Positions 1 to 12,877 of a stretch of 64,000 nucleotides of DNA are shown piece by piece. A program made the position numbers and the translations under genes. A model generated the notes under the pieces. The model saw only the letters and a list, made by a program, of their open reading frames with translations, ran no database searches and had not been told where the DNA came from. The stretch lies in NCBI GenBank assembly GCA_965213675.1, contig OZ243916.1, forward strand, positions 2,592,001 through 2,656,000. The letters are read 5' to 3'. Numbering within the stretch: the stretch's first letter is position 1; the number at the start of each line of letters is the position of its first letter. This stretch comes from an uncultured Candidatus Binatia bacterium (GTDB lineage: Bacteria; Desulfobacterota; Binatia; UBA9968; JAJDTQ01).

Positions 1-3000
1 TGTCCTTCTCGGAGGCGAAGTACAGCGCCAAGGAGGGCATCCCCGTCCATGCGTGGGTGCATATCGCCCCGGTCCGCGCATCGCCCACGCACGTTCCGGT
101 CTCGACGACCGCGCTCACCGCGACGGGCGGCGGGGTCGATTATCAGGACTACAGCGCCTCGGTTTCCATCCCGGCGGGATGGAACCGATTCCCGTTGTCG
201 GTCAACACCGTCATCGACAAGGTCCTGGACGAGGGGGAAACGTTCCGGCTGGATATCGACGCTTCCAGCCTTCCCGAGGGTGTCAAGGTCGGAACGCACG
301 GGTCGGCCGTCGTGACCCTCCTGGACCCCGTGCTGGCCATCACGGGCGGCGACGCGGTGGACGAGGGGCAGCCGGCGGTGTTCACGCTGAACATGGACTA
401 CGGCCCTGGCGGGACCTGGCCGTACATCGATGTCCGGGTCGCCGTGCCCTGGGGTGGCCGCGTCATGAACCGCACGGTCCGTAGAAATGCTCAGGAGACG
501 GTGCTCAGTTTCACGGCCACCGGGGACGACCTGAACGTGAGCGGCGACTGGCACTATTGCGCCTGGGTGCTGCCGGTGACCGGGTACAAGACCGGGGATT
601 CGAGCAAGCCGCCCAAGCCCGCCGGGAAGACTTATGACGGCAATCCCGCCAACTGCCCGTCGGGCGCCACAGTGCTGGTCAGGGACGACGATGACCACCC
701 GTCCGAGGCCGAGGCGCCACGGGTCACCTCCATCGAGCGGTACTACCCCGACTCGGCGAGGACCATCACCCCCTCCTATCTGCGCTGGCGGCTGACCTTC
801 AGCGAAGAGGTCGGGAACATGAACAAGGCGGACTTCCAGCTCACCGGCACCACGGCCCGGCTTTCCGTGGAACAGGCCAAAGACCAATACGGAAAGGCCA
901 TCGACGGCGCCAGGATCGGCGGAAATTGGGTTGCAGACGGTACGGGCTCGACTTGGGACGTGACCGCGAGGGGCGGCAACCTGTTGGATATCAAGGGCAC
1001 GGTCACCCTGAGCTTTGCCGACGACCAGGACATCCGGGATCTGGGCGGCAACGCGCTCGCCAGCACCACGCCCACCGGGACCAACGACAACCATTTCGTG
1101 GTGAACGATCCCAACGCGCCCGCGACGGAGCCGGCGGCGTCCTTCGCCTCGGCGACGTCGAACTCGGCCGAGGACGCCGGCACGCACAAGGTGATGTTGA
1201 ACCTCGCACCGGCGCCCCCGGGCGGCCTCACGCTGAGCTACACGGTAGACGGCACAGCGACGGCGGGCAGCGGCCATGACTTCACCATCCAGAGCTCCGG
1301 GACGCTGTCGGTCGCAGCCGGAGCCACCACCGCGGCGCTCCCGGTGGGCATCCACGACGACGCTTCGGTCGAGGACGACGAGACGGTGGTGCTGACGCTG
1401 ACCGACGGCACGGGCTACACGCTCGGCGGCACGACGGCCCACACCTTCACCATCGCCGACAACGACGTCACGGCCGGCACGCCGGGCGTGACGGTCTCGA
1501 CCGGCGCTCTCGACCTCGCCGAGGGCGGGACCGCGGGGAGCTACACGGTGGTGCTGGCGAGCAAGCCGACCGCGAACGTGACCGTGACGGCGACCAGCGG
1601 CGATGCGGCGAAGGTCAAGCTCCACAAGCAGGGCGGAAGCCCGGGCGCGAGCACGACGCTCACCTTCACGCCGACGACCTGGAACCAGGCGCAGACGATC
1701 ACGGTGACGCCCGAGCAGGACAGCGACGCCGACGACGAGAACGTGACCGTCGCCCATGCGGTGAGCCAAACCGGCGGCTACGACGGTGTGACGGCGGCCT
1801 CGGTCACGGTCGCGGTGGACGACGACCAGACGCCCGCCGCCTGCGTGTCGGACGCGCTCCGCACCAATGTCGAGAGCTATGCGGAGGAAACCTGGCGAGC
1901 CCACCCGCATGTCGAGCGCTGGAGCCAAGTGCTCGCCGCCTTCGGGGTCAGCAACGGCTACAACCCGATGACCGCGAGCGAAGCGCAGACCCACGCCGAC
2001 AGGGGCCTGCCCCGGTGGGTGCCGGTGGTGACTGCGCTAGAATGCCTGGAAGGCGCGCCGCCGCCGCCCGCACTGCCCGTCATCACCATCGCCGGCGGGA
2101 CAGGCGTCACCGAGGGCGGCGACGCGGTGTTCACCGTCAGCGCGAGTCCCGCGCCGACAGCCAGCCTCACGGTGTCGCTCACCGTCGCCGATGACGGAAC
2201 GAGCGACTTCCTCGCGCAATCGGACGAAGGCGTGCGGACGGTCACCATCGCCGGGGGCCAGACCTCCGCCACCCTGACGCTCACAACGCAAGACGACAGC
2301 GCCGACGAGACCGATGGCAGCGTCACCACCACCGTCGCCGGCGGCGCCGGCTACACCGTCGGCACGCCGTCCACGGGCACGGCGGCGGTGAGCGACGACG
2401 ACGATCCGCCTCCCGCTACGCCAGTAGTGAGTATCGCCGGCGGCAGTGCCATCACCGAGGGCGGCACGGCCCGCTTCACCCTGACCGCGACGCCTGCACC
2501 GCTCGGCACGCTCACGGTGAATGTGAATGTCGTGGACAGCGGCGCGTTCGCGTCGAGCGGCGAGTCCGGCGCGAAGACGGTCACCATCGACACCACCGGC
2601 TCGGCGACGCTCGACGTCGCCACGGACAACGACAACACGGACGAGCCCGACGGCACGCTCGGCGCGACCATCGCCAGCGGTCAGGGCTACACGCCATCTG
2701 GCACCCACGGCTCGGCTTCGATTGCCGTGCGCGACGATGATGCCTCGACCGCCTGCGTCTCCGACGCTCTGCTTGCCGATGTCCAGGGCTATGCGGGGGA
2801 AAACCGGCCGAACTCGCCGGACCATGTCGAGCGCTGGAAGCGGGTGCTCGCCGCCTTCGGGGAGAGCAACAGCTACAGCAACAACCCGATGACCGCGACC
2901 GAAGCGCAGACCCAGGCCGACAGGGGCTTGGCCCGGTGGGTGCCGGTGGTGACCGCGCTCGAATGCCTGGAGGGCGCGCCGCCGCCCGCACTGCCCGCCA

Positions 3001-5816
3001 TCAGCATCTCCGCCGGGGCAGGCATCACCGAGGGCGGCGATGCGGTGTTCACCGTCAGCGCGAGTCCCGCGCCGGCAGCGAGCCTCACGGTGTCGCTCAC
3101 CGTCGCCGATGACGGAACGAGCGACTTCCTGGCGCAATCGGACGAAGGCACGCAGACGGTCACCATCGCCGGGGGGCAGACCTCCGCCACCCTGACGCTC
3201 ACGACGCAGGACGACAGCACCGACGAGGCGGACGGCAGCGTCACCGCCACCGTCACCGGCGGCACCGGCTACACCGTCGGCACACCATCCACGGGAACCA
3301 TGGCGGTGAGCGACGACGACCCGGCGCCGTCGGCCACGCCCGTCGTCAGCATTGCCGCGGGCGGAGACGTCAACGAAGGCGCCGCCGCCCAATTCACGCT
3401 CACCGCATCACCCGCCCCGACGACGACCATCACCGTCAACGTCGCGGTCGCGCAGAGCGGAGATTTCGCGACAAGCGGAGAGACGGGAGCGAGAACCGTC
3501 ACCATCGGGTCGAGCGGCACCGCAACGGTGGACGTCGCCACCGACAACGACAGCACCGACGAGGCGAACGGCAGCGTCACCGCCACCGTGCAGGCGGGCA
3601 CCGGCTACACGGTGGCGGCATCGCCGAACCATGCGGCCACGGTGACGGTGTCCGACGACGAAGTGCCGGTCGTGCGCGTCGCGGGCGGCACCGGGGTGAC
3701 CGAAGGCGCTTCGGCTTCGTTCACGGTCACGGCGAGCCCGCCGCCGGCCGCATCCATCACCGTCAACGTTGCGGTCACGCAGAGCGGCGATTTCGCCACT
3801 TCCGGCGAGACCGGCACGCGGACGGTCACCGTCGCGACCTCGGGCAACGCGACCTTCTCGGTCGCCACCGACGACGACAGCACCGACGAGACGAACGGCA
3901 GCGTCACCGCCACCGTGCGGACGGGCACCGGCTACACGGTGGCGGCATCGCCGAACCATGCAGCCACGGTGACGGTGTCCGACGACGACGGCACCTCGTC
4001 GGGGCCGACTCTCTCGATTGCCGATGCGAGCTTCACCGAGAACGAACGCTATGGCTACTTCACGGTGACCTTGAGCGAGGCGACGGACGTCGACGTGCGC
4101 TTCGTCTACGCGACACGCGACTCGACGCCGGTCTCGGCAACGGCGAACGAGGACTACGTCGAGATCCCGCGCGCGTGGAGGATCGGACGCCGGATCAAGG
4201 CCGGCGAAACGCAGACACGGTTCTGGATCCCGATTCGCGACGACAACCACGACGAAGGCCCGGAGACGTTCGAGGTCGAAATCTTCGACGCGTTCGTCTG
4301 GCGCTCGGGCAAAGTCCCACTGACGATTACGGATTCGGTTGCGGTGGGCACCATCACCAACTCGGACCCGATGCCAGCGGCGTGGCTGGCGCGCTTCGGT
4401 CGCACGGTGGCGGAGCAGGCGCTCGACGGCATAGCCGGACGCATCGCGGCCCCGCGCACCGCGGGTGTCGAGGGCACCCTGGCCGGACAGGCGCTCACCT
4501 TCGGCAGCGGCGGCCCCGCCGGGGAGGAGCACCCGTACGGGCCGGACGCCTCCCTCACCCTGACGTCGCGCGATGCGCTGCTCGGCAGCCGGTTCACCGC
4601 GACGGGGGAGAGAGACGTGAGCGGCGGGAGCCTCGCCTTCTGGGGCCGTGCGGCGCACTCGCGCTTCGACGGCCGGGAGGGAACGTTCTCCCTCGACGGG
4701 GAGACGACCACGGCGATGCTCGGCGCGGACTATGCGCGCGGCGACTGGCTGCTCGGCCTTGCGCTCACGCACAGTGAGGGCGAGGGCGGCTATGCCGACC
4801 GCGGCACGGGACCGCAGGCATGCCCCGACGATTCGGACCCCGGCATGATGGCGTCTCTGTGCAACGGGGCGGTACAGGAAGGCGACGGCGACGTGGACGC
4901 CGCGCTCACCGCCGCCCTTCCCTATGCGGCACTTCAGGCATCCGAGCGCCTCAAGCTCTGGGGCGCGCTCGGCTACGGCTCGGGCGACGTGACGCTCAAT
5001 CCCCAAACCGGCGAGGTGCTCGAGTCGGACATCTCGTGGACGATGGCCTCGGCGGGCACCCGAAGCGACCTCCTCACCCCGCTGGACGAAGGCGGAGGGT
5101 TTTCCCTCGCTCTGGTCTCGGATGCGCTCTGGGCGCGGACGAACTCGGAGAAGACGAGCGGTCTGGCGGCGTCGGACTCAGACGTGACACGGTTCCGTCT
5201 GGGACTGAGGGGAAGCTGGAGCCATCCCCTCGAAGGCGGTGGCCATTGGACGCCGAAGCTCGAAGCGGGCATGCGCCACGACGGCGGCGACGCCGAGACC
5301 GGCTTTGGAGTCGAGCTTGGCGGCGGCCTCGCCTGGAGCGTTCCCACCCTCGGCCTGTCACTCGACCTGTCGGGCCGCACCCTGCTCGCGCACGCCGACA
5401 ACGACCTGAAGGACCGGGGCTTCGCGGCCTCGTTCGTCTTCGACCCCGCTCCGGCAAGCGAGCGCGGCGCGGCGTTCCGCATTCGTCAGGAATGGGGCGG
5501 ACAGGCCGCGGGCGGGCTCGACGCACTGTTCGCGGCCGACCCCCTGGAGGACCGCACCGGGAGCGAGACCGCGAGCCGCTGGACGGCGGAAGCGGCCTGG
5601 GGCTTCGCCGCCTTCGGCGGGCGCTTCACCGGCAGTCCGCACGCCGGAGTCGGCCTCTCCACCGGAGCGCGCGAATACACCCTCGGCTGGCGGCTCACGC
5701 CGGCGGCCGGCGCCAGTGCCCCCGGCCTTTCCTTCGGGGTGGAGGCGACCCAGCGCGAGGACCGCGGCACGGCGACGGCACACGCGCTCGGGATCGAACT
5801 CAACGCACACTGGTGA
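1..5816 (+). CDS. Giant Calx-beta/Ig-like repeat surface protein with C-terminal autotransporter beta-barrel (5'-truncated by window edge)
   Basis: Frame is open from base 3 (SFSEAKYSAKEG...). Repeated Calx-beta-like units (VTEGGDAVFTV...DDSADETDGSVT...GYTV...VSDDD). From about 4360, NSDPMPAAWLARFGRTVA leads into amphipathic beta strands ending in a terminal W. Confidence 0.85.
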   Translation, partial: SFSEAKYSAKEGIPVHAWVHIAPVRASPTHVPVSTTALTATGGGVDYQDYSASVSIPAGWNRFPLSVNTVIDKVLDEGETFRLDIDASSLPEGVKVGTHGSAVVTLLDPVLAITGGDAVDEGQPAVFTLNMDYGPGGTWPYIDVRVAVPWGGRVMNRTVRRNAQETVLSFTATGDDLNVSGDWHYCAWVLPVTGYKTGDSSKPPKPAGKTYDGNPANCPSGATVLVRDDDDHPSEAEAPRVTSIERYYPDSARTITPSYLRWRLTFSEEVGNMNKADFQLTGTTARLSVEQAKDQYGKAIDGARIGGNWVADGTGSTWDVTARGGNLLDIKGTVTLSFADDQDIRDLGGNALASTTPTGTNDNHFVVNDPNAPATEPAASFASATSNSAEDAGTHKVMLNLAPAPPGGLTLSYTVDGTATAGSGHDFTIQSSGTLSVAAGATTAALPVGIHDDASVEDDETVVLTLTDGTGYTLGGTTAHTFTIADNDVTAGTPGVTVSTGALDLAEGGTAGSYTVVLASKPTANVTVTATSGDAAKVKLHKQGGSPGASTTLTFTPTTWNQAQTITVTPEQDSDADDENVTVAHAVSQTGGYDGVTAASVTVAVDDDQTPAACVSDALRTNVESYAEETWRAHPHVERWSQVLAAFGVSNGYNPMTASEAQTHADRGLPRWVPVVTALECLEGAPPPPALPVITIAGGTGVTEGGDAVFTVSASPAPTASLTVSLTVADDGTSDFLAQSDEGVRTVTIAGGQTSATLTLTTQDDSADETDGSVTTTVAGGAGYTVGTPSTGTAAVSDDDDPPPATPVVSIAGGSAITEGGTARFTLTATPAPLGTLTVNVNVVDSGAFASSGESGAKTVTIDTTGSATLDVATDNDNTDEPDGTLGATIASGQGYTPSGTHGSASIAVRDDDASTACVSDALLADVQGYAGENRPNSPDHVERWKRVLAAFGESNSYSNNPMTATEAQTQADRGLARWVPVVTALECLEGAPPPALPAISISAGAGITEGGDAVFTVSASPAPAASLTVSLTVADDGTSDFLAQSDEGTQTVTIAGGQTSATLTLTTQDDSTDEADGSVTATVTGGTGYTVGTPSTGTMAVSDDDPAPSATPVVSIAAGGDVNEGAAAQFTLTASPAPTTTITVNVAVAQSGDFATSGETGARTVTIGSSGTATVDVATDNDSTDEANGSVTATVQAGTGYTVAASPNHAATVTVSDDEVPVVRVAGGTGVTEGASASFTVTASPPPAASITVNVAVTQSGDFATSGETGTRTVTVATSGNATFSVATDDDSTDETNGSVTATVRTGTGYTVAASPNHAATVTVSDDDGTSSGPTLSIADASFTENERYGYFTVTLSEATDVDVRFVYATRDSTPVSATANEDYVEIPRAWRIGRRIKAGETQTRFWIPIRDDNHDEGPETFEVEIFDAFVWRSGKVPLTITDSVAVGTITNSDPMPAAWLARFGRTVAEQALDGIAGRIAAPRTAGVEGTLAGQALTFGSGGPAGEEHPYGPDASLTLTSRDALLGSRFTATGERDVSGGSLAFWGRAAHSRFDGREGTFSLDGETTTAMLGADYARGDWLLGLALTHSEGEGGYADRGTGPQACPDDSDPGMMASLCNGAVQEGDGDVDAALTAALPYAALQASERLKLWGALGYGSGDVTLNPQTGEVLESDISWTMASAGTRSDLLTPLDEGGGFSLALVSDALWARTNSEKTSGLAASDSDVTRFRLGLRGSWSHPLEGGGHWTPKLEAGMRHDGGDAETGFGVELGGGLAWSVPTLGLSLDLSGRTLLAHADNDLKDRGFAASFVFDPAPASERGAAFRIRQEWGGQAAGGLDALFAADPLEDRTGSETASRWTAEAAWGFAAFGGRFTGSPHAGVGLSTGAREYTLGWRLTPAAGASAPGLSFGVEATQREDRGTATAHALGIELNAHW
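1836..3990 (+). repeat. Internal near-identical duplications in the adhesin gene (about 1836-2400 vs 2748-3320; about 3340-3660 vs 3665-3990)
   Basis: Long DNA-level matches, e.g. gacggaacgagcgacttcct..gcgcaatcggacgaagg twice and ggcaccggctacacggtggcggcatcgccgaaccatgc twice. Confidence 0.9.
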
Positions 5817-6155: not shown

Positions 6156-6443
6156 ATGGAAGCACCTTACGACAACCCATCCGAAACCGCCGAAGCGCTC
6201 ATCGAGCGCCTTGCCCAAGCGGTGCATGGCCGGCGCATGACGGTGCCGGCGATCCTGTTTCTCGAAACCCACAAGCCGCTGACGTCGCTGTTCCATACGG
6301 CGGCGGTGATGAGCCTGCCGATGATGCTGCCGCTGTTCGGCGCGAAGGCGCGGGAGTTGCCGGCGTTTCTCCAGTCGCGGGACAACGTGGAGCGGCTCAT
6401 CCGGCGCATCGAAGAACTCGCCGGGGAAGGCGGAAAGGACTGA
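6156..6443 (+). CDS. Small hypothetical protein, first gene of the GlmL-like operon
   Basis: 95 aa, AILFLETHKPL motif; stop overlaps the next start (TGATG). Confidence 0.8.
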   Translation: MEAPYDNPSETAEALIERLAQAVHGRRMTVPAILFLETHKPLTSLFHTAAVMSLPMMLPLFGAKARELPAFLQSRDNVERLIRRIEELAGEGGKD

Positions 6444-7252
6444 TGAGCGGTTTCGAGAACGCCACCCCAGGGGTGCTGGTGGTGATGGCGCTGATGATCG
6501 CGCCGGTGCTCTACTACATTCGCGTGGCGCGGCGGCGGAGCGACCTTTACGTGCGCCGGCTGGCCGGTGTGGACGCCATCGACGAGGCCGCCGGGCGGGC
6601 GGCGGAGATGGGGCGCCCGCTGTCCTTCTCCACCGGCCTCACCAATGTAAGCCCGGTCCTGTACGCCTGCCTGGGGGTGCTCTATTACGTGGCGCGCAAG
6701 GCGGCGCAGTACCGGACGCGCCTGCTGGTGCCGCAGAACACACCGGAGGTCATGGCCATCGCCGAGGACGTGCTGCGCGAAGCCTACCGCGCCGAGGGCC
6801 GCTCGGCCCTGTTCGATCCGCGCAACATCCGGTTTCTCTCCGAGGAGCAGTTCGCCTTCGCCGCGGGCTACATCGGAATGGTGCAGCGGGAGCGCGTGGC
6901 GGGCGCCTTTCTCTTCGGCAACTTCGCGGCCGAATCGCTGATCCTGGCGGAGGCGGGGCAGCAGGTGGGGGCCATGCAGGTGGGCGCCTCGGTGAGCCCC
7001 GAGCAGGTGGCGTTCTTCATCGCGGCGTGCGATTACACGCTCATCGGCGAGGAGCTGTTCGCCGCGTCGGCCTACCTCACCCGTGAACCCATCCAGCTCG
7101 GCAGCCTCTACGGGCAGGACCGCGCCAAGCTCTTCCTCTTCCTCATGATCCTGGCCGGAGTGGGCATCGCCACGGTGAACTCGGTGTGGCCCGAACTGGG
7201 TCTCACCAACCTGGACACCCTCATGCATCTTGGCTGGGGGTTCGGGTCGTGA
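6443..7252 (+). CDS. DUF6754-like membrane-anchored protein
   Basis: N- and C-terminal TM helices around an alpha/beta domain with IDEAAGRAAEMGRP, AESLILAEAG and CDYTLIGEELFAASAYL motifs, recognised as DUF6754-like. Confidence 0.75.
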   Translation: MSGFENATPGVLVVMALMIAPVLYYIRVARRRSDLYVRRLAGVDAIDEAAGRAAEMGRPLSFSTGLTNVSPVLYACLGVLYYVARKAAQYRTRLLVPQNTPEVMAIAEDVLREAYRAEGRSALFDPRNIRFLSEEQFAFAAGYIGMVQRERVAGAFLFGNFAAESLILAEAGQQVGAMQVGASVSPEQVAFFIAACDYTLIGEELFAASAYLTREPIQLGSLYGQDRAKLFLFLMILAGVGIATVNSVWPELGLTNLDTLMHLGWGFGS

Positions 7253-8298
7253 ACGTCCGGGCGCGCCTCATCAAGCTCGTCACCCTGCTGGGCGGCATCT
7301 ATTTCTTCCTGGAGTTCGTGCTGCCGGGCACCGTGTTCGGAGTGAAGGTCGACGCCTACCATGACCAGATCACCAACGGTTTCATTACCGTGGGGGCCAT
7401 GGCCGCGGGGCTGGGGCTTGTCAATCTGCTCATGCAGCACGGTTCGCGGATCGTCTTCCGGCGCCGGGAATGGCCCTACAGCCTGGCGCTGCTTTCGGGG
7501 CTGGCCGTCATGATCGTCGTGACGCTTCAGGACTGGCGCGGCACCGACCGGGTGGCGGAAGAGGTGGCGGGCATTTCCCGGCTGGCGGACTTTGCGGCGC
7601 GCATCGGGTCGGACCACGAAAACGCGGCCGAAGGCGCGCTGCCCGCGGGCGCGCGCAACCGCGCGCTGCGGGACGCGGCGAACCGGCTGCTGGCGCGTAT
7701 CGAAGACGAGACCGGCGCCTTCGACCTCCGACGATTCGGGCAAGGGAGCATCGACCACGGGCTCGCGCGGGGCCACCTGGCGGTGGTGGGCAAGGGGGTT
7801 GCCGCGGCGCGCGGCGCGCTCGGGAAGCTCACCGTGGCCGACGGCGCGGCGCCGGACCTCGCCGCCAACGCGGCGGTGACCCGCGCCCTGCGCGGCCTCG
7901 CCGATAATTGGCGCGCCCTGCGCAACCTCGAGTACGAGTACTCCACGTCCAGGCACGTCTACCGGCTGCTCTTTGAAGGCTTGTTCGTGGCGCTGGGCTC
8001 GGCCATGTTCTCGCTGCTGGGTTTCTACATCGCGGCCGCGGCCTACCGCGCCTTCCGGGTGCGCTCCGCCGAGTCATCCTTGATGATGGCCGCGGCGGTG
8101 GTGGTCATGCTCGGGCAGATCCCCTTCGGCGTATGGATCTGGTCCGGGCTGCCGGACTTGCGGCTCTGGCTCCTGGAAATACCCAACTCGGCGGCGTTCC
8201 GCGCCATCACCTTCGGCGCCGGCGTGGCCGGGCTGGTGATGGCGTTCCGCATGTGGTTCTCCATCGAATCGGACTCCTTCGACCGGGAGGGACGCTGA
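7249..8298 (+). CDS. Polytopic membrane protein with inserted Ala/Arg-rich helical soluble domain
   Basis: GTG start overlaps the upstream TGA (GTGA). About 3 TM, about 150-aa helical insert, then about 3 TM with MFSLLGFYIAAAAYRAFR. Confidence 0.8.
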   Translation: MNVRARLIKLVTLLGGIYFFLEFVLPGTVFGVKVDAYHDQITNGFITVGAMAAGLGLVNLLMQHGSRIVFRRREWPYSLALLSGLAVMIVVTLQDWRGTDRVAEEVAGISRLADFAARIGSDHENAAEGALPAGARNRALRDAANRLLARIEDETGAFDLRRFGQGSIDHGLARGHLAVVGKGVAAARGALGKLTVADGAAPDLAANAAVTRALRGLADNWRALRNLEYEYSTSRHVYRLLFEGLFVALGSAMFSLLGFYIAAAAYRAFRVRSAESSLMMAAAVVVMLGQIPFGVWIWSGLPDLRLWLLEIPNSAAFRAITFGAGVAGLVMAFRMWFSIESDSFDREGR

Positions 8299-8299
8299 C

Positions 8300-9175
8300 G
8301 TGAACCTTGCCCGGATCGACCGCCGCTGGATCTACCTGCTGGTCTTCCTGGCGCTGAGCGCGCCCATCTTGACGCAATACACGGTGCCGCCGGCGCGCAT
8401 GAGCGACGCGGAGCGGTTCTTCGAGGTGGTGGACGGCCTCGAGGCGACACCGGGCCGCTACGCCTTCGTGGCCATGGACTTCGGGCCCAGCACCAAGGGC
8501 GAGAACCAGCCCCAGGCGCGCGCGGTGGTGGAGCATCTCATGCGCCGGCGCATCCCGGTGATCCTGTTTTCGCTCTATTACCTCGCGGAGCCGTTCCTCA
8601 AGTCCATCCCCGAGGAGGTGGGGCGCCAACTCGAACGGGAAAACCCCGGCGAGACCTGGGAATACGGCCGCGACTGGATCAATCTGGGATACCGGCCCGG
8701 GGCCGGGATCCTGATCCAGGCGATTCCCAAGTCCGAAAACCTGGCCCAACTTTTCGGCAAGGACGCCCGCGGCAACCGAATTTCCGATCTGCCCGGGTTC
8801 CGCGAACTGCGCACCTTGCGCCAGATCGCCTTTCTCGCCGAGTTCACCGGCCTGGTCGGCGCCTTCGACACCTACGTGCAGTATTTTACCAGCAAGGACT
8901 ACACGCCGGCCTTCGGCCACGGCTGCACTTCCATCACCATCCCGGAGGCGTTCATCTACCTGGACTCGGGACAGATCCAGGGCCTGCTGGGCGGGCTGGC
9001 GGGGGCCGCCTGGTACTCCGAGCTGTTGCGCCGGCGCTATCCCGAGCGCCCGGTGGACGAATCGCTGATGCTCAACACGGGCCTCGGGGTGGCCCAGCTC
9101 GTGGTCATCGCCTTCATCGTGCTGGGAAATCTGGCGGGACTGTTCGGGCGACGGCGGACGCGGTCCCGACCATGA
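8300..9175 (+). CDS. Membrane-anchored protein with extracytoplasmic alpha/beta domain (unknown function)
   Basis: N-terminal TM after RIDRR; DFGPSTKGE, YGRDWINLGY and GQIQGLLGGLAGAAWY motifs; C-terminal TM. Confidence 0.8.
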   Translation: MNLARIDRRWIYLLVFLALSAPILTQYTVPPARMSDAERFFEVVDGLEATPGRYAFVAMDFGPSTKGENQPQARAVVEHLMRRRIPVILFSLYYLAEPFLKSIPEEVGRQLERENPGETWEYGRDWINLGYRPGAGILIQAIPKSENLAQLFGKDARGNRISDLPGFRELRTLRQIAFLAEFTGLVGAFDTYVQYFTSKDYTPAFGHGCTSITIPEAFIYLDSGQIQGLLGGLAGAAWYSELLRRRYPERPVDESLMLNTGLGVAQLVVIAFIVLGNLAGLFGRRRTRSRP

Positions 9176-9882
9176 CGAGCCCGGACACATGGCATGTCGC
9201 CACCATCCTCGTGGGCGGCATCGGGACACTGGCGATCTTCAGCTTCCTGATCAAGGAGAACGCCTTTTTCCGGGTCTTCGAGCACCTGTTCATCGGCATC
9301 GCCGCGGGTTTCGGTCTGGTGCTGGGCATCAAGAACTTCCTGTGGCCGAAGGTGCTGGCGCCGATGCTGGGGCGCGACATCGTCACCTACCCGGACGGCA
9401 GCCTCTCCCACGAGTACGACCCGCGGCTCCTGCTCTACCTGCTGCCCATGGTGTTCGGGCTGTTCTACTACTTCATCTATTCGCGGCGGTACGCGTGGCT
9501 CGCCAAGCTGGTGATCGGTTTCTCCCTGGGAATGAGCGGCGGGCTGGCCTTCAAGGGCTTCTTCAACCAGATCATGCCCCAGGTAGTGAGCAGCTTCCGC
9601 CCGCTGGCGGTGTTCGAGGACGGCGCGCTGGCCCTGGGCGCCAGTCTGGAGAACGCCTTTTTCGTCTTCACACTGCTGGCGGTCATGTACTACTTCTTTT
9701 TTTCGTTCCGGCACGAGAACCGCGCCGCCGGCGGCATCTCCCTGTCCGGCCGCTGGCTGCTCATGGTGTGCTTCGGCGCGTTCTTCGGTTCCACGGTCAT
9801 GGCGCGCACCGCGCTGCTGGTGGAGCGGGTACAGTTCCTGCTCATCGACTGGTACGGCGCGCTGGCGGGGCTGATGGCATGA
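9172..9882 (+). CDS. Polytopic membrane protein (about 6 TM, unknown function)
   Basis: Highly hydrophobic; FSFLIKENAFFRVFEHLFIG and GRWLLMVCFGAFFGSTVMAR motifs; ATGA coupling on both sides. Confidence 0.8.
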   Translation: MTSPDTWHVATILVGGIGTLAIFSFLIKENAFFRVFEHLFIGIAAGFGLVLGIKNFLWPKVLAPMLGRDIVTYPDGSLSHEYDPRLLLYLLPMVFGLFYYFIYSRRYAWLAKLVIGFSLGMSGGLAFKGFFNQIMPQVVSSFRPLAVFEDGALALGASLENAFFVFTLLAVMYYFFFSFRHENRAAGGISLSGRWLLMVCFGAFFGSTVMARTALLVERVQFLLIDWYGALAGLMA

Positions 9883-11732
9883 AAACGGACCCCGCCGCCC
9901 TGCGCACCGTGCTGGTCACGGACTGCGGCTCCACCACCACCAAGGCGCTGCTGTTCGAGAAGACCGGGACAGGCTGGCGCCAGACGCACCGCGGCGAGGC
10001 CCCCACCACCGTGGAACAGCCGGTGGCGGACGTGACCGCCGGCGCGCTCAACGCCTTCGCCGAGGTGGAGGAAATCAGCGGCCGGAAGATTCTGGTCCCC
10101 GGCGGCGCGCACGGCGGCGCGACGCCGTTCCTCGAATCCGGCACAGACGGCGCCCACGGCATCGACCTCTACCTGTCCACCAGCTCGGCTGGCGGCGGGT
10201 TACAGATGACTGTGGCCGGGGTGGCGCGCCAGATGAGCGCCGAGTCCGCGGAGCGGGCGGCCTTGAGCGCCGGCGCCATCGTCATGGACGCCATCTCCGC
10301 GGACGACGGGCGCGAGGACCACGAGCGCATCCAGCGGCTGCGGCAGTTGCGGCCCGACATCGTGCTGCTCACCGGCGGCGTGGACGGCGGTTCCCAGGAA
10401 CACGTGGTGGAGATGGCGGAGACCCTGGTGGCGGCCTCGCCGCGGCCGCGGTTCGGCGACACATTGCGGCTGCCCGTGATCTACGCGGGCAACCACGAAG
10501 CCGTGGACGACGTCCGGCGCATCCTCGAGAAGAGCGCACAAGTGGCGGTGGTGGACAACGTGCGCCCGGTGCTGGAGGCGGAGAACCTCGGCCCGGCGCG
10601 GGAAGCCATCCACGAATTCTTCCTCACCCACGTCATGAGCCACTCGCCGGGCTACGACAAGCTGCTCCGGTGGACGCCGGCGCCGGTGATGCCCACGCCC
10701 GCGGCCGTGGGGGACATGGTGCGGGAGCACGCGGCGAGCACCGGGCAGGCGGTGTTGTGCGCGGACATCGGCGGCGCCACCACCGACGTGTTCAGCGTCT
10801 TCGAGAACCGGCAAGGCGAGCCGGTGTTCAACCGCACTGTGAGCGCGAACCTGGGCATGAGCTATTCCGTGGCCAACGTGCTCATCGAGGCGGGTGTCGA
10901 AGGCATCCACCGCTGGCTCCCGTGCGACATCCAGCCCTCCGAAGTCCGCGACCGGTTGCGCAACAAGATGATCCGCCCCACTTCGATTCCCCAGACCCTG
11001 GAGGACCTGTGGCTGGAACAGGCGGTGTGCCGCGAGGCCTTGCGCCTGGCGCTGGCGCACCACCGCTCCCTGGCCGTCGGGCTCAGCGGCGTGCAGCAGC
11101 AGCGCGGCATTGCCGACATCTTCTCGCAGACCGCGAGCCGCGCGGACCTGGTGGACATGATGCGCCTGGACCTGGTGATCGGCTCGGGCGGCGTTCTGAG
11201 TCACGCGCCGGATCGCATGGGCGCGGCCCTCATGATCCTGGAGGGGTTCGAACTGCAGGGCTTCACGCAGATCGCCGTGGACTCCATCTTCATGATGCCC
11301 CACCTGGGCGTGTTCGCCTCGATCCACCCCCAAGCCGCGCGCGAGATCTTCCTGCACGACTGCCTCGTGAACGTGGCCCATGCGCTCGCGCCCGTGTTCC
11401 CGCCCAAGCGGCCGGCGGGCTCGGTCCTCGCGGAGGTGTCCGTCGACGGCGGGCCGGCCGTCCCCCTCACCGCGGGCGCGGTGGGCCGCATCGAACTGCC
11501 ACCCGGCGCCGCCACCCGGATCGTCGTCCGCCCGGCCCGGGGCGCCGTGGACGTGGGCGCCGGCCCGGGCGTGCCGCTGGAACGGGAGTTCACCGCGGGC
11601 CTGTGCGGCGTCATCCTCGACGGTCGCAACCGTCCGCTCCGAACCACTCCGTTCGCGGAGGCACAGACGGCGGAGCGCCGGGCCGTCATGGCGGAACTGG
11701 GGCTCATTCACCGCGCAGGCGACGAGCCATGA
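9879..11732 (+). CDS. GlmL (glutamate mutase L)-like ASKHA/actin-fold ATPase
   Basis: Phosphate-1 VTDCGSTTTKA, TSSAGGGL, phosphate-2 ADIGGATTDVFS, RTVSANLGMSYS, IGSGGVLSHAP. ATG 9879 overlaps the upstream stop; the ORF-track N-extension is spurious. Confidence 0.85.
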   Translation: MKTDPAALRTVLVTDCGSTTTKALLFEKTGTGWRQTHRGEAPTTVEQPVADVTAGALNAFAEVEEISGRKILVPGGAHGGATPFLESGTDGAHGIDLYLSTSSAGGGLQMTVAGVARQMSAESAERAALSAGAIVMDAISADDGREDHERIQRLRQLRPDIVLLTGGVDGGSQEHVVEMAETLVAASPRPRFGDTLRLPVIYAGNHEAVDDVRRILEKSAQVAVVDNVRPVLEAENLGPAREAIHEFFLTHVMSHSPGYDKLLRWTPAPVMPTPAAVGDMVREHAASTGQAVLCADIGGATTDVFSVFENRQGEPVFNRTVSANLGMSYSVANVLIEAGVEGIHRWLPCDIQPSEVRDRLRNKMIRPTSIPQTLEDLWLEQAVCREALRLALAHHRSLAVGLSGVQQQRGIADIFSQTASRADLVDMMRLDLVIGSGGVLSHAPDRMGAALMILEGFELQGFTQIAVDSIFMMPHLGVFASIHPQAAREIFLHDCLVNVAHALAPVFPPKRPAGSVLAEVSVDGGPAVPLTAGAVGRIELPPGAATRIVVRPARGAVDVGAGPGVPLEREFTAGLCGVILDGRNRPLRTTPFAEAQTAERRAVMAELGLIHRAGDEP

Positions 11733-12877
11733 CCCAGGCGCTCACACCCAGGCTGCAGGTCCTGGCTGAAACCATCGTGCGGAAGACCCGCGAACTCCCC
11801 GTGCCGGGCCGCATCCTGTGCGCTCCGGAAGACGCCGTTGCCGCCGACACCGTGGTGGCCCGCGCCGAGCTGCCCGGCGACCTGTCCATCCTGCGGATCC
11901 CCGAAGCTCTCGGCATCGAACCCGCCGAAGCCCTCAAGGGCCTCACGGTGCGCGAGGGTGATGCCGCCAGTGAGGGGGACATCCTGTGCGAGCATGTGGG
12001 CCTCTTCGGGCTGTTCCGCTCGCGCTTCCATGCGCCCGCGAGCGGCGCCGTGGAGTTCATCGCGCCCCGCACCGGGCACGTGGGAGTGCGGTTGGCGCCC
12101 CATGCCATCGAGTTGAACGCCTACGTCCCCGGCACGGTGGCGGCCGTGGACCCGGGCAAGTCCGTCACCATCGAATGCCGCGCCGCGTTCGTCCAGGGCA
12201 TCTTCGGGGTCGGCGGCGAGCGCTCCGGCGCCATCCGCATGCTCGACGGCGGCCCCAAGACGATCCTGGGTCCCGGGAGGATCCCGGACGATGTGTCCGG
12301 CCAGATCCTGGTGGGAGGTACGCGACCGACCCTCGACGCCCTGCAACGCGCCGCCGAAAACGGTGCCGCCGGCCTGGTGGTGGGCTCCATCGACGACTAC
12401 GCGCTGACCGGCTACCTTGGCTACGATCTCGGCATGGCCGTCACCGGACACGAGGACGTGTCCATGACCGTCATCGTCACCGAGGGCTTTGGCTGGCTCG
12501 CCGTGGCCGAACGCACCCACGCCCTGTTGCGGCGCCTCGAAGGCCGCGCCGCCTCCATCAACGGCACCACCCAGGTGCGCGCCGGCGCGGTGCGCCCGGA
12601 GATCATCGTGGCCCGAACCGAGGGAGTTGGTGGCGCGGGCGGCGAGCAGGATGTGGCTGCCGGCGCCGGCGCGCCGCGGGACCCGGGGTCCGGGCTGCGC
12701 GTCGGCGCCTTCGTGCGCATCATCCGGGAGCCCCACTTCGGCGTCGACGCGGAGATCCTCGCCCTGCCCGCCGAGCCCCAACTCATCAAGACCGGCGCCC
12801 GTACCCGGGTGCTGGAGGCCCGGCTGCCCGACGGCACCCTCGTCACCGTCCCCCGCGCCAACGTCGAGCTGCTCTGA
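11729..12877 (+). CDS. Hypothetical protein with barrel-sandwich-hybrid-like repeats and C-terminal KOW/SH3-like domain
   Basis: ATG 11729 (ATGA overlap). VREGDAASEGDILCE...APASGAV hybrid-like motif, QGIFGVGGE, VTEGFG, TQVRAGAVRPEII, VRIIREPHFG...VPRANVEL. Confidence 0.8.
   Translation: MTQALTPRLQVLAETIVRKTRELPVPGRILCAPEDAVAADTVVARAELPGDLSILRIPEALGIEPAEALKGLTVREGDAASEGDILCEHVGLFGLFRSRFHAPASGAVEFIAPRTGHVGVRLAPHAIELNAYVPGTVAAVDPGKSVTIECRAAFVQGIFGVGGERSGAIRMLDGGPKTILGPGRIPDDVSGQILVGGTRPTLDALQRAAENGAAGLVVGSIDDYALTGYLGYDLGMAVTGHEDVSMTVIVTEGFGWLAVAERTHALLRRLEGRAASINGTTQVRAGAVRPEIIVARTEGVGGAGGEQDVAAGAGAPRDPGSGLRVGAFVRIIREPHFGVDAEILALPAEPQLIKTGARTRVLEARLPDGTLVTVPRANVELL

Follow-up and report, generated by a model that had tools for sequence, protein, structure and literature searches.

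What does an ATPase of the GlmL/MutL family do when it is encoded among membrane proteins and away from any B12-dependent mutase? The question is raised by seven adjacent genes (g1 to g7, positions 6156 to 12877) in a stretch of 64,000 nucleotides (the window; forward strand of contig OZ243916.1, positions 2,592,001 to 2,656,000) from the genome of an uncultured Candidatus Binatia bacterium (assembly GCA_965213675.1). The set is real and widespread and fits no known kind of system; the family of the ATPase is known, the machine is not. The seven genes very probably form one ATP-driven inner-membrane machine that is independent of B12 mutases, and we favour, with a probability of roughly 0.4, a primary active transporter with a shared actin/Hsp70-fold energiser, an inverted topology and reactivase-style stripping of a ligand from an inner domain. 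The genes are as follows.

g1, 6156..6443, + strand: 95-aa small protein without known family; putative adaptor
g2, 6443..7252, + strand: 269-aa DUF6754 membrane protein
g3, 7249..8298, + strand: 349-aa membrane protein with six transmembrane (TM) segments
g4, 8300..9175, + strand: 291-aa protein, TM segment, Rossmann-like domain, TM segment
g5, 9172..9882, + strand: 236-aa membrane protein with about six TM segments
g6, 9879..11732, + strand: 617-aa long-type GlmL/MutL-family ASKHA (actin/Hsp70-fold) ATPase
g7, 11729..12877, + strand: 382-aa soluble protein with barrel-sandwich hybrid repeats and a C-terminal KOW domain

The seven-gene set and its distribution

Every junction in the set is an overlap or a 1-nt gap (from g1 to g7, a 1-nt overlap, TGATG; a 4-nt overlap, GTGA; a 1-nt gap; and three 4-nt ATGA overlaps), with start codons chosen by hand at the coupled positions (an open reading frame (ORF) finder lists start codons further upstream for g3, g6 and g7). 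This is the coupled layout described in an initial annotation of the DNA, whose list of contents (a small protein, four membrane proteins, an ASKHA ATPase with intact phosphate-1 and phosphate-2 motifs, and a hybrid-barrel/KOW protein) was also borne out. Its step from overlaps to a stoichiometric complex was not, as overlaps do not show a fixed stoichiometry and WOR-3 genomes carry the genes in unequal copy numbers. Hydropathy gave two, six, two and five membrane segments for g2, g3, g4 and g5, respectively (six for g5 when counted from its family alignment), and none for g1, g6 and g7. The GC content at third codon positions of the seven genes (0.81–0.92) was similar to that of neighbouring genes, and a Pfam scan gave no family match for the window's own copies of g1, g3, g4, g5 and g7.

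A scan with g6 confirmed at least 566 related stretches, the best 80 loci of which were used for analysis; by their record titles, these came from Binatia, Bdellovibrionota/Oligoflexia, WOR-3, Nitrospirota, Planctomycetota, Armatimonadota, Myxococcales, Elusimicrobia, Latescibacterota and others. The complete set was present in 34 of the 80 loci and therefore recurs beyond chance, with 18 loci in the order 1-6-7-2-3-4-5, 15 in the order of the window and one in the order 2-3-4-5-1-6-7. At another 38 loci g6 was present and the membrane genes were not (orders 6, 1-6 or 1-6-7), eight held other partial sets, and the membrane block g2-g3-g4-g5 was constant in order throughout. Conservation of gene order, proposed beforehand as a test of the system, was thus found at the level of blocks. 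In Planctomycetaceae the set is scattered, with DUF6754 and g6 each standing alone (L087 7979-9322).

Whole genomes were then considered, as a pattern and not as a statistical test, related genomes not being independent. The search took in the genomes of 38 of the 46 incomplete loci and of 12 complete ones (50 carriers in all, each a metagenome-assembled genome of unstated completeness). Missing parts were found elsewhere in the 38 genomes (DUF6754 in 37, g5 in 36 and a g7-like gene in 35, three of these partial), and DUF6754 was present in 49 of the 50 carriers. A single PF13941 (ATPase family) gene and a single DUF6754 gene occur in the window's own genome, which is 97.7% complete. Spread among relatives is patchy: DUF6754 occurred in 16 of 18 congeners but was absent from 12 genomes belonging to other families within the order and from a phylum-wide sample of 200 genomes, and both congeners without it, which are near-complete, also lacked g6. 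Searches of plasmid and viral contigs gave no DUF6754 relative.

The two halves of the set also differ in copy number. Two to four DUF6754 genes were carried by 19 of the carrier genomes, 15 of which had a single PF13941 match; among the other four, three add a divergent g6–g7 fusion and one has fragments only. As 18 of the 20 DUF6754 loci fetched were whole g2-g3-g4-g5 cassettes (two with tandem cassettes), the cytoplasmic unit of g6 and g7 therefore appears to serve one or several cassettes.

The ATPase and B12-dependent mutases

Along almost the entire PF13941 (MutL/GlmL) profile (positions 1–449 of 450), g6 matched with E = 7.2e-121 and 404.5 bits, against a Pfam gathering cut-off of 27, and it is the most conserved subunit of the set (median pairwise identity 57% across the sampled phyla). 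Its ASKHA motifs (DCGSTTTK, residues 15–22; DIGGATTD, 296–303; SGG, 436–438), which we take to be the phosphate-1, phosphate-2 and adenosine motifs, respectively, were invariant in 50 relatives. The curated NCBIfam models for GlmL itself were both missed at their cut-offs (NF040745, 213 versus 475 bits; TIGR01319, 173 versus 204 bits), as was the Or-4 model NF040744 (208 versus 600 bits). Identity to E. coli O157 GlmL was 29% over 451 columns, and g6 exceeds the short GlmL proteins by about 120 C-terminal residues (short-type ORFs fetched were about 405–481 aa, versus 617 aa). A quick tree of 41 rows (root arbitrary, three rows on long branches) separated 14 short from 27 long or fused proteins by a branch with a support of 99 in the Shimodaira–Hasegawa-like approximate likelihood ratio test (SH-aLRT). 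A PDB sequence search with g6 gave no match at E ≤ 10, and its insert gave noise only.

The family name points to mutases: a passage of one paper terms MutL/GlmL a chaperone for glutamate mutase reactivation (PMC4682846), part of a second lists actin-superfamily members including glutamate mutase (PMC5597319), and the glutamate mutase genes of Dictyoglomus discussed in part of a third (PMC5167688) seem to belong to a different system. Among the 50 carrier genomes, no GlmE (four weak sub-cut-off matches) and no OraE/KamD was found over cut-off. In the phylum sample, 17 genomes had PF13941 over cut-off and all of them lacked DUF6754; 16 of the 17 carried a mutase (ten GlmE and six OraE/KamD), and those of their ORFs that were fetched whole were of the short type. 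The window's own genome lacks GlmE, OraE/KamD, methylmalonyl-CoA mutase and EutB, with positive controls matched in each search (for the mutases, E. coli O157 and the 16 short-GlmL genomes); diol dehydratase (PF02286) was not matched either, in a search in which no positive control matched. B12-binding domains of only two kinds occur in the genome, judged from translations, in a MetH-like protein and a radical SAM protein. Both lie outside the window, in line with the initial annotation, which had reported no mutase or B12-binding gene within it.

On this distribution, which is mutually exclusive with that of the mutases, g6 is not a B12-mutase helper. Co-occurrence with a mutase, named in advance as the observation that would speak against an orphan ATPase, was absent from the carriers, and this and the gene-order result support the core of the earlier proposal, that a GlmL-like ATPase serves an uncharacterised membrane complex. 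Were g6 instead an ordinary reactivase for an unlinked B12 enzyme, with the membrane genes as a separate unit, its PF13941 membership, its identity to E. coli GlmL, the MetH-like enzyme and the 38 loci in which g6 stands without membrane genes would all be accommodated, but the mutases missing from its own genome, the mutual exclusion, the missed NCBIfam cut-offs and the separation of long and short types in the tree largely refute this account, which we regard as very improbable.

Membrane cassette and cytoplasmic partners

The membrane cassette looks like a mirrored pair, with the domain of g2 inside the cell and a domain of the same fold, that of g4, outside. AlphaFold2 models of g2, a DUF6754 protein (Pfam E = 6.8e-85), and of g4 (mean predicted local distance difference test (pLDDT) scores of 91 and 95.4, respectively) share one order of elements, a TM segment, a helix, six strand–helix units and a second TM segment. 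Fold searches returned many tied Rossmann matches. For g2 (VIA), the top ones were PGK (Z 10.4, root-mean-square deviation (rmsd) 3.5, 146 residues aligned), Sir2 (10.2, 3.7, 143), MT0777 (10.1, 3.3, 133) and transhydrogenase dIII (9.7, 3.3, 139); MT0777 was also the top match of g4 (Z 9.7, rmsd 3.4, 140 aligned), and both proteins cover it from residue 6, to residue 150 or 156. RCK/Ktr (KtrA/C) and USP stood with Sir2 and transhydrogenase dIII among the matches at Z 8–10, and no family or enzyme fold stood out, so far as the families listed go. In PDB sequence searches, g2 matched through an FN3 region only and g4 gave noise. The Atlas search with g4 gave unnamed clusters only, and names of cluster members offered no clue, the g4 family itself comprising 5,249 clusters at 50% identity (E ≤ 0.001).

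The predicted orientations follow from the positive-inside rule. Lysine plus arginine (K+R) values were 0.72 before and 3.44 after TM1 in g2, which would place its domain in the cytoplasm, and 2.99 before TM1 and 3.71 after TM2 in g4, which would place its domain outside. Independent support for the topology of g2 comes from relatives with signal-like N-termini and FN3-like domains, and g4 domains are placed outside also because copies of them are attached to the outer part of a g2 and inserted in a g3 loop that faces outwards. The g4 domain is mobile, being found at the N-terminus of a DUF6754 protein (P0294), in the outer loop of a g3 (P0391) and in duplicate within a g4 (P0121).

Similar reasoning suggests that g3 and g5 are six-helix proteins of opposite orientation. 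Across 59 sequences, the K+R flanks of g3 predict six TM segments with both termini inside, and those of g5 predict an N-terminus outside, its last segment being ambiguous. Two natural g4–g5 fusions (P0153 and P0191; one of them from a cluster named Planctomycetaceae) have one extra hydrophobic helix between their parts, as opposite termini would require. Between TM3 and TM4, g3 has a variable outer-side insert (about 145 aa here, none in WOR-3). No consistent Pfam match was obtained for g3 (30 members; 25 of the 37 families shown), for which PDB matches were noise, or for g5 (30 members), which had no usable named Atlas match and no PDB match at E ≤ 10. No cysteine was conserved in more than 40% of g3 (59) or g5 (61) sequences. 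A cysteine-based electron relay of DsbD or Rnf type was accordingly rejected, C209 of g4 also being variable (GCT in 78 of 195). An assignment of the membrane proteins to a known transporter, also named in advance as an observation against the proposal, did not result from Pfam, PDB sequence or fold searches, the fold search covering g2 and g4.

Outer-side appendages are varied across the cassette relatives, with PKD, Ig, PQQ-propeller, WD40, OmpA, CBM, FG-GAP, TPR and HhH domains overall. They include FN3, PKD, Ig, PQQ-propeller and OmpA domains in g2 relatives; CBM_4_9 (PF02018), FG-GAP, TPR or a g4 domain between the two halves of long g3 relatives; and HhH/T2SSK-like inserts in some g5 relatives. 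In many WOR-3 DUF6754 paralogues (L088-L101), the FN3-like ectodomain opens with a recurring D-x-P-x-D-x-G. The appendages are optional, as the window's g2 carries none. They bear on a force-generating or secretion/envelope-remodelling machine, in which an actin fold would be used as in PilM or FtsA and OmpA-type or Ig-like appendages would anchor to the wall: one DUF6754 protein has an OmpA-family peptidoglycan-binding domain inserted in its outer N-terminal part (L094 7598-9052, − strand), and the T2SSK-like inserts and the fold of the ATPase would also suit such a machine. The appendages are sporadic, however, the loci have no outer-membrane, pilin or cargo gene in common, the adjacent adhesin is found at none of the 80, and two near-complete congeners do without the system, which leaves this account improbable.

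Conserved residues raise a different possibility, transmembrane group transfer or envelope modification, in which g6 would activate a small substrate with ATP and the group would travel through g2 and g3/g5 until g4, on the outside, transfers it to an envelope acceptor. Hydantoinase A/oxoprolinase-type ASKHA subunits activate small substrates with ATP. The g6 family has four invariant histidines (251, 395, 442 and 475) and two invariant cysteines on top of its high identity across phyla, polar residues at the ends of strands are invariant in g4 (D60, E68 and T210), and the GlmL model weakly matches 570–750-aa ORFs that we presume, from recall, to be hydantoinase-type. Such transfer is nevertheless unlikely in our judgement: the loci share no neighbouring gene for an acceptor, a carrier or a precursor, g7 lacks conserved His and Cys residues and a carrier Lys, and the fold matches of g2 and g4 do not single out an enzyme.

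On the cytoplasmic side, a complex prediction weakly supports a contact between g6 and g2. With g6 (residues 8–612), g1 (8–91) and g2 (8–250, as the partner), it gave 0.46 versus 0.00 for the best control, one of the controls having replaced g6. Of 157 solved complexes, 116 reach the mark applied, as do two of 215 mismatches; 18 of the 157 and both mismatches do so at 0.60 or under, and a three-chain job with its own alignments differs from that calibration set; no interface was returned. At least 64% of contacts were common to the runs, and partner pLDDT was at least 70.

Homologues of g1, for which there was no Pfam match and no PDB match below E 0.2, were present in 57 of the 80 loci, preceding g6 in loci of the 1-6-7 type and g2 in loci of the 1-2-3-4-5 type (in L102-L104, g1 lies ahead of g2 with no g6 within the 16-kb stretch). 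That g1 pairs with either module suggests a role as an adaptor between them. The ATPase and g7 are also found joined, in g6–g7 fusions of 916 aa (L098 11960-14710, − strand) and 933 aa (L120 3005-5806, − strand). Further divergent fusions (L121 865-3537, + strand, two ORFs; L122 1974-3257, − strand) were observed, and the divergent fusions are second copies beside a standard g6, with long branches in the tree.

For g7 itself, matches at E up to 0.1 among 43 relatives were to RnfC_N (26), Biotin_lipoyl (26) and KOW (9), and its central Gly-rich domain is weakly swivel- or PA-like (PA in 4 of 22, best E 0.061; RraA, E 0.34). A role as phosphohistidine swivel or lipoyl carrier was rejected, as no His or Cys is conserved in even half of the 43 relatives and the barrel-hairpin Lys, present in 23 of them, is absent from the window's copy. 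Where lipoyl domains have this lysine, at the tip of the hybrid-barrel hairpin, g7 has a conserved hydrophobic G-L/F-F-G-L/W-F (residues 91–96, about 11999–12016), possibly a membrane- or partner-binding loop. The best PDB sequence match of g7 was T. maritima NusG (E 0.0046), with barrels and then KOW in the same order.

The NusG match could be taken as a sign of transmembrane signalling, in which outer domains would sense a cue, the cassette would relay it to g2, g6 would act as nucleotide switch and g7 would deliver a transcription or translation output. Cassettes with differing ectodomains multiplied against one ATPase, and regulatory RCK/Ktr and USP domains among the tied fold matches, would also fit. 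Yet the match is weak and its motifs generic, no regulator, kinase or sigma factor is among the conserved neighbours, the window's g2 has no ectodomain, and the twelve core helices of g3 and g5 probably exceed what a simple relay needs; we therefore find signalling unlikely.

A candidate transport mechanism and its setting

We return to the transporter, which is favoured because opposite-facing domains of one fold and oppositely oriented six-helix subunits suit a carrier, inverted topology being a hallmark of transporters. In the mechanism proposed, g6 and g7, with g1 as adaptor, would form a cytoplasmic energiser and g2-g3-g4-g5 the membrane cassette. The outer domain of g4 would bind a small ligand, g3 and g5 would build the path across the membrane, and the inner domain of g2 would take over the ligand. 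Docked on g2, g6 would strip the tightly bound ligand through its ATP/ADP switch and so give direction, a coupling step modelled on the B12-enzyme reactivases, in which nucleotide drives ligand release from a Rossmann-type partner. One energiser may feed several paralogous cassettes, as in energy-coupling factor (ECF)-type transporters. The folds, topologies and g6–g2 contact used here are predicted, and from them, with the observed gene set, co-occurrence, copy-number asymmetry and ASKHA motifs, we infer the transport path, the ligand and the direction. ATP hydrolysis is presumed as well: at the connect-1 position, g6 has Thr (MPTP; short GlmL likewise) instead of the Glu of Hsp70 and MreB.

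That substitution is one of several points that weigh against a transporter. To our knowledge, no transporter is energised by an ATPase of this kind. Rossmann folds are common, and the fold matches at Z 8–10 are many and tied. The outer appendages (OmpA, HhH, CBM, TPR and propellers) fit envelope anchoring or sensing as well as uptake. Sequence paralogy was not significant for g2/g4 (hhalign probability 1–2%; 3 of 40 block shuffles score as high) or g3/g5 (1–2%; 13 of 40) and was dropped, the mirrored arrangement being kept as an argument from fold and topology for g2/g4 and from topology for g3/g5. Structure models cover g2 and g4, and no channel was seen. The 80 loci have no conserved eighth gene, and no riboswitch was found in the first 20 kb of the window or in 25 loci. 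Of the earlier suggestion that the ATPase energises or gates a transport, secretion or signalling complex, the uncharacterised membrane complex therefore stands, and the choice among the three is a matter of interpretation.

On one side of the set lies an SBP_bac_5 ATP-binding cassette (ABC) importer; on the other is

Calx-beta repeat protein, 57–5816, + strand: giant adhesin flank; open frame of about 2,308 codons that begins before the first position of the window

The adhesin, presumably autotransporter-like at its C-terminus, contains a twice-repeated segment of no known kind. The position of the set between these two neighbours was correctly described in the initial annotation, but a role for them was not supported: the adhesin occurred at none of the 80 related loci and an ABC binding protein at seven (four close relatives and three weak matches), and a functional link to either was rejected. 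The commonest other neighbour was glycine cleavage P, behind which g1-g6 often lies (17 of the 80 loci, mostly WOR-3; L024 8265-9695 and 16 others), and in six Nitrospira-type loci (L078 7924-8841 and five others) g1-g6 follows lipoyl synthase; both adjacencies may be lineage synteny. A promoter and terminator scan found no more than in shuffled sequence, and nothing upstream of g1.

Set beside known systems, the machine shares parts with several and matches none. GlmL/MutL (glutamate/methylaspartate mutase) and Or-4 (D-ornithine aminomutase operons) belong to the same family as g6 and share its ASKHA motifs, SSAxGG, GGxDGG and MPTP, whereas g6 is longer, falls below their cut-offs, lies across the 99-supported branch and accompanies DUF6754 and g7 instead of GlmSE or OraSE. 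The diol and glycerol dehydratase reactivases DdrAB and GdrAB combine an ASKHA nucleotide switch, a swivelling domain and a dehydratase client. Here, g6 would be the switch, a swivel-type domain may come from g7 (through its weak PA and RraA matches) and the client would be Rossmann-type (g2, as modelled); unlike theirs, the proposed client is a membrane subunit, DdrA was not matched by the g6 profile in the PDB, and no dehydratase was found in the genome (in the search without a matched positive control). ECF-type transporters of group II combine a pair of ABC ATPases with T and S components, and several unlinked membrane modules draw on a single energising module. The likeness is one of logic only, in the genomic pattern of single PF13941 matches in multi-DUF6754 genomes; the ATPase is of ASKHA and not of ABC type, the Pfam matches shown for g3 and g5 include no ECF T or S family, and the repeated unit is a four-gene cassette. 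Rnf and Nqr are ion-translocating oxidoreductases with Cys-ligated Fe-S in RnfA/E, flavin and Fe-S subunits and an NADH site. The RnfC_N/NqrA_N-like N-terminal barrel of g7, the oppositely oriented six-helix pair and the soluble domains on both sides recall them, but g3 and g5 have no conserved Cys, there is no Fe-S, flavin or Rnf/Nqr membrane family match, and an ATPase takes the place of the NADH site. A full-text literature search, outside which most subscription papers and supplements lay, gave no description of the seven-gene set and no paper on DUF6754 or PF13941.

Together, these results identify a conserved machine that is prominent, and so far unexplained, in genomes of the Nitrospirota, Planctomycetota, WOR-3, Armatimonadota, Myxococcota, Bdellovibrionota-type and Binatia lineages, and one whose ATPase, through its match to 'glutamate mutase L' families, invites a false call of glutamate fermentation. 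If the machine is a transporter, it would represent a new mode of coupling ATP to membrane transport, and the cytoplasmic domain of DUF6754 would be a defined partner for GlmL proteins, a family that has seen little testing. In that case the membrane machine would be the main and more conserved form of the family, with the mutase-associated GlmL proteins as an offshoot.

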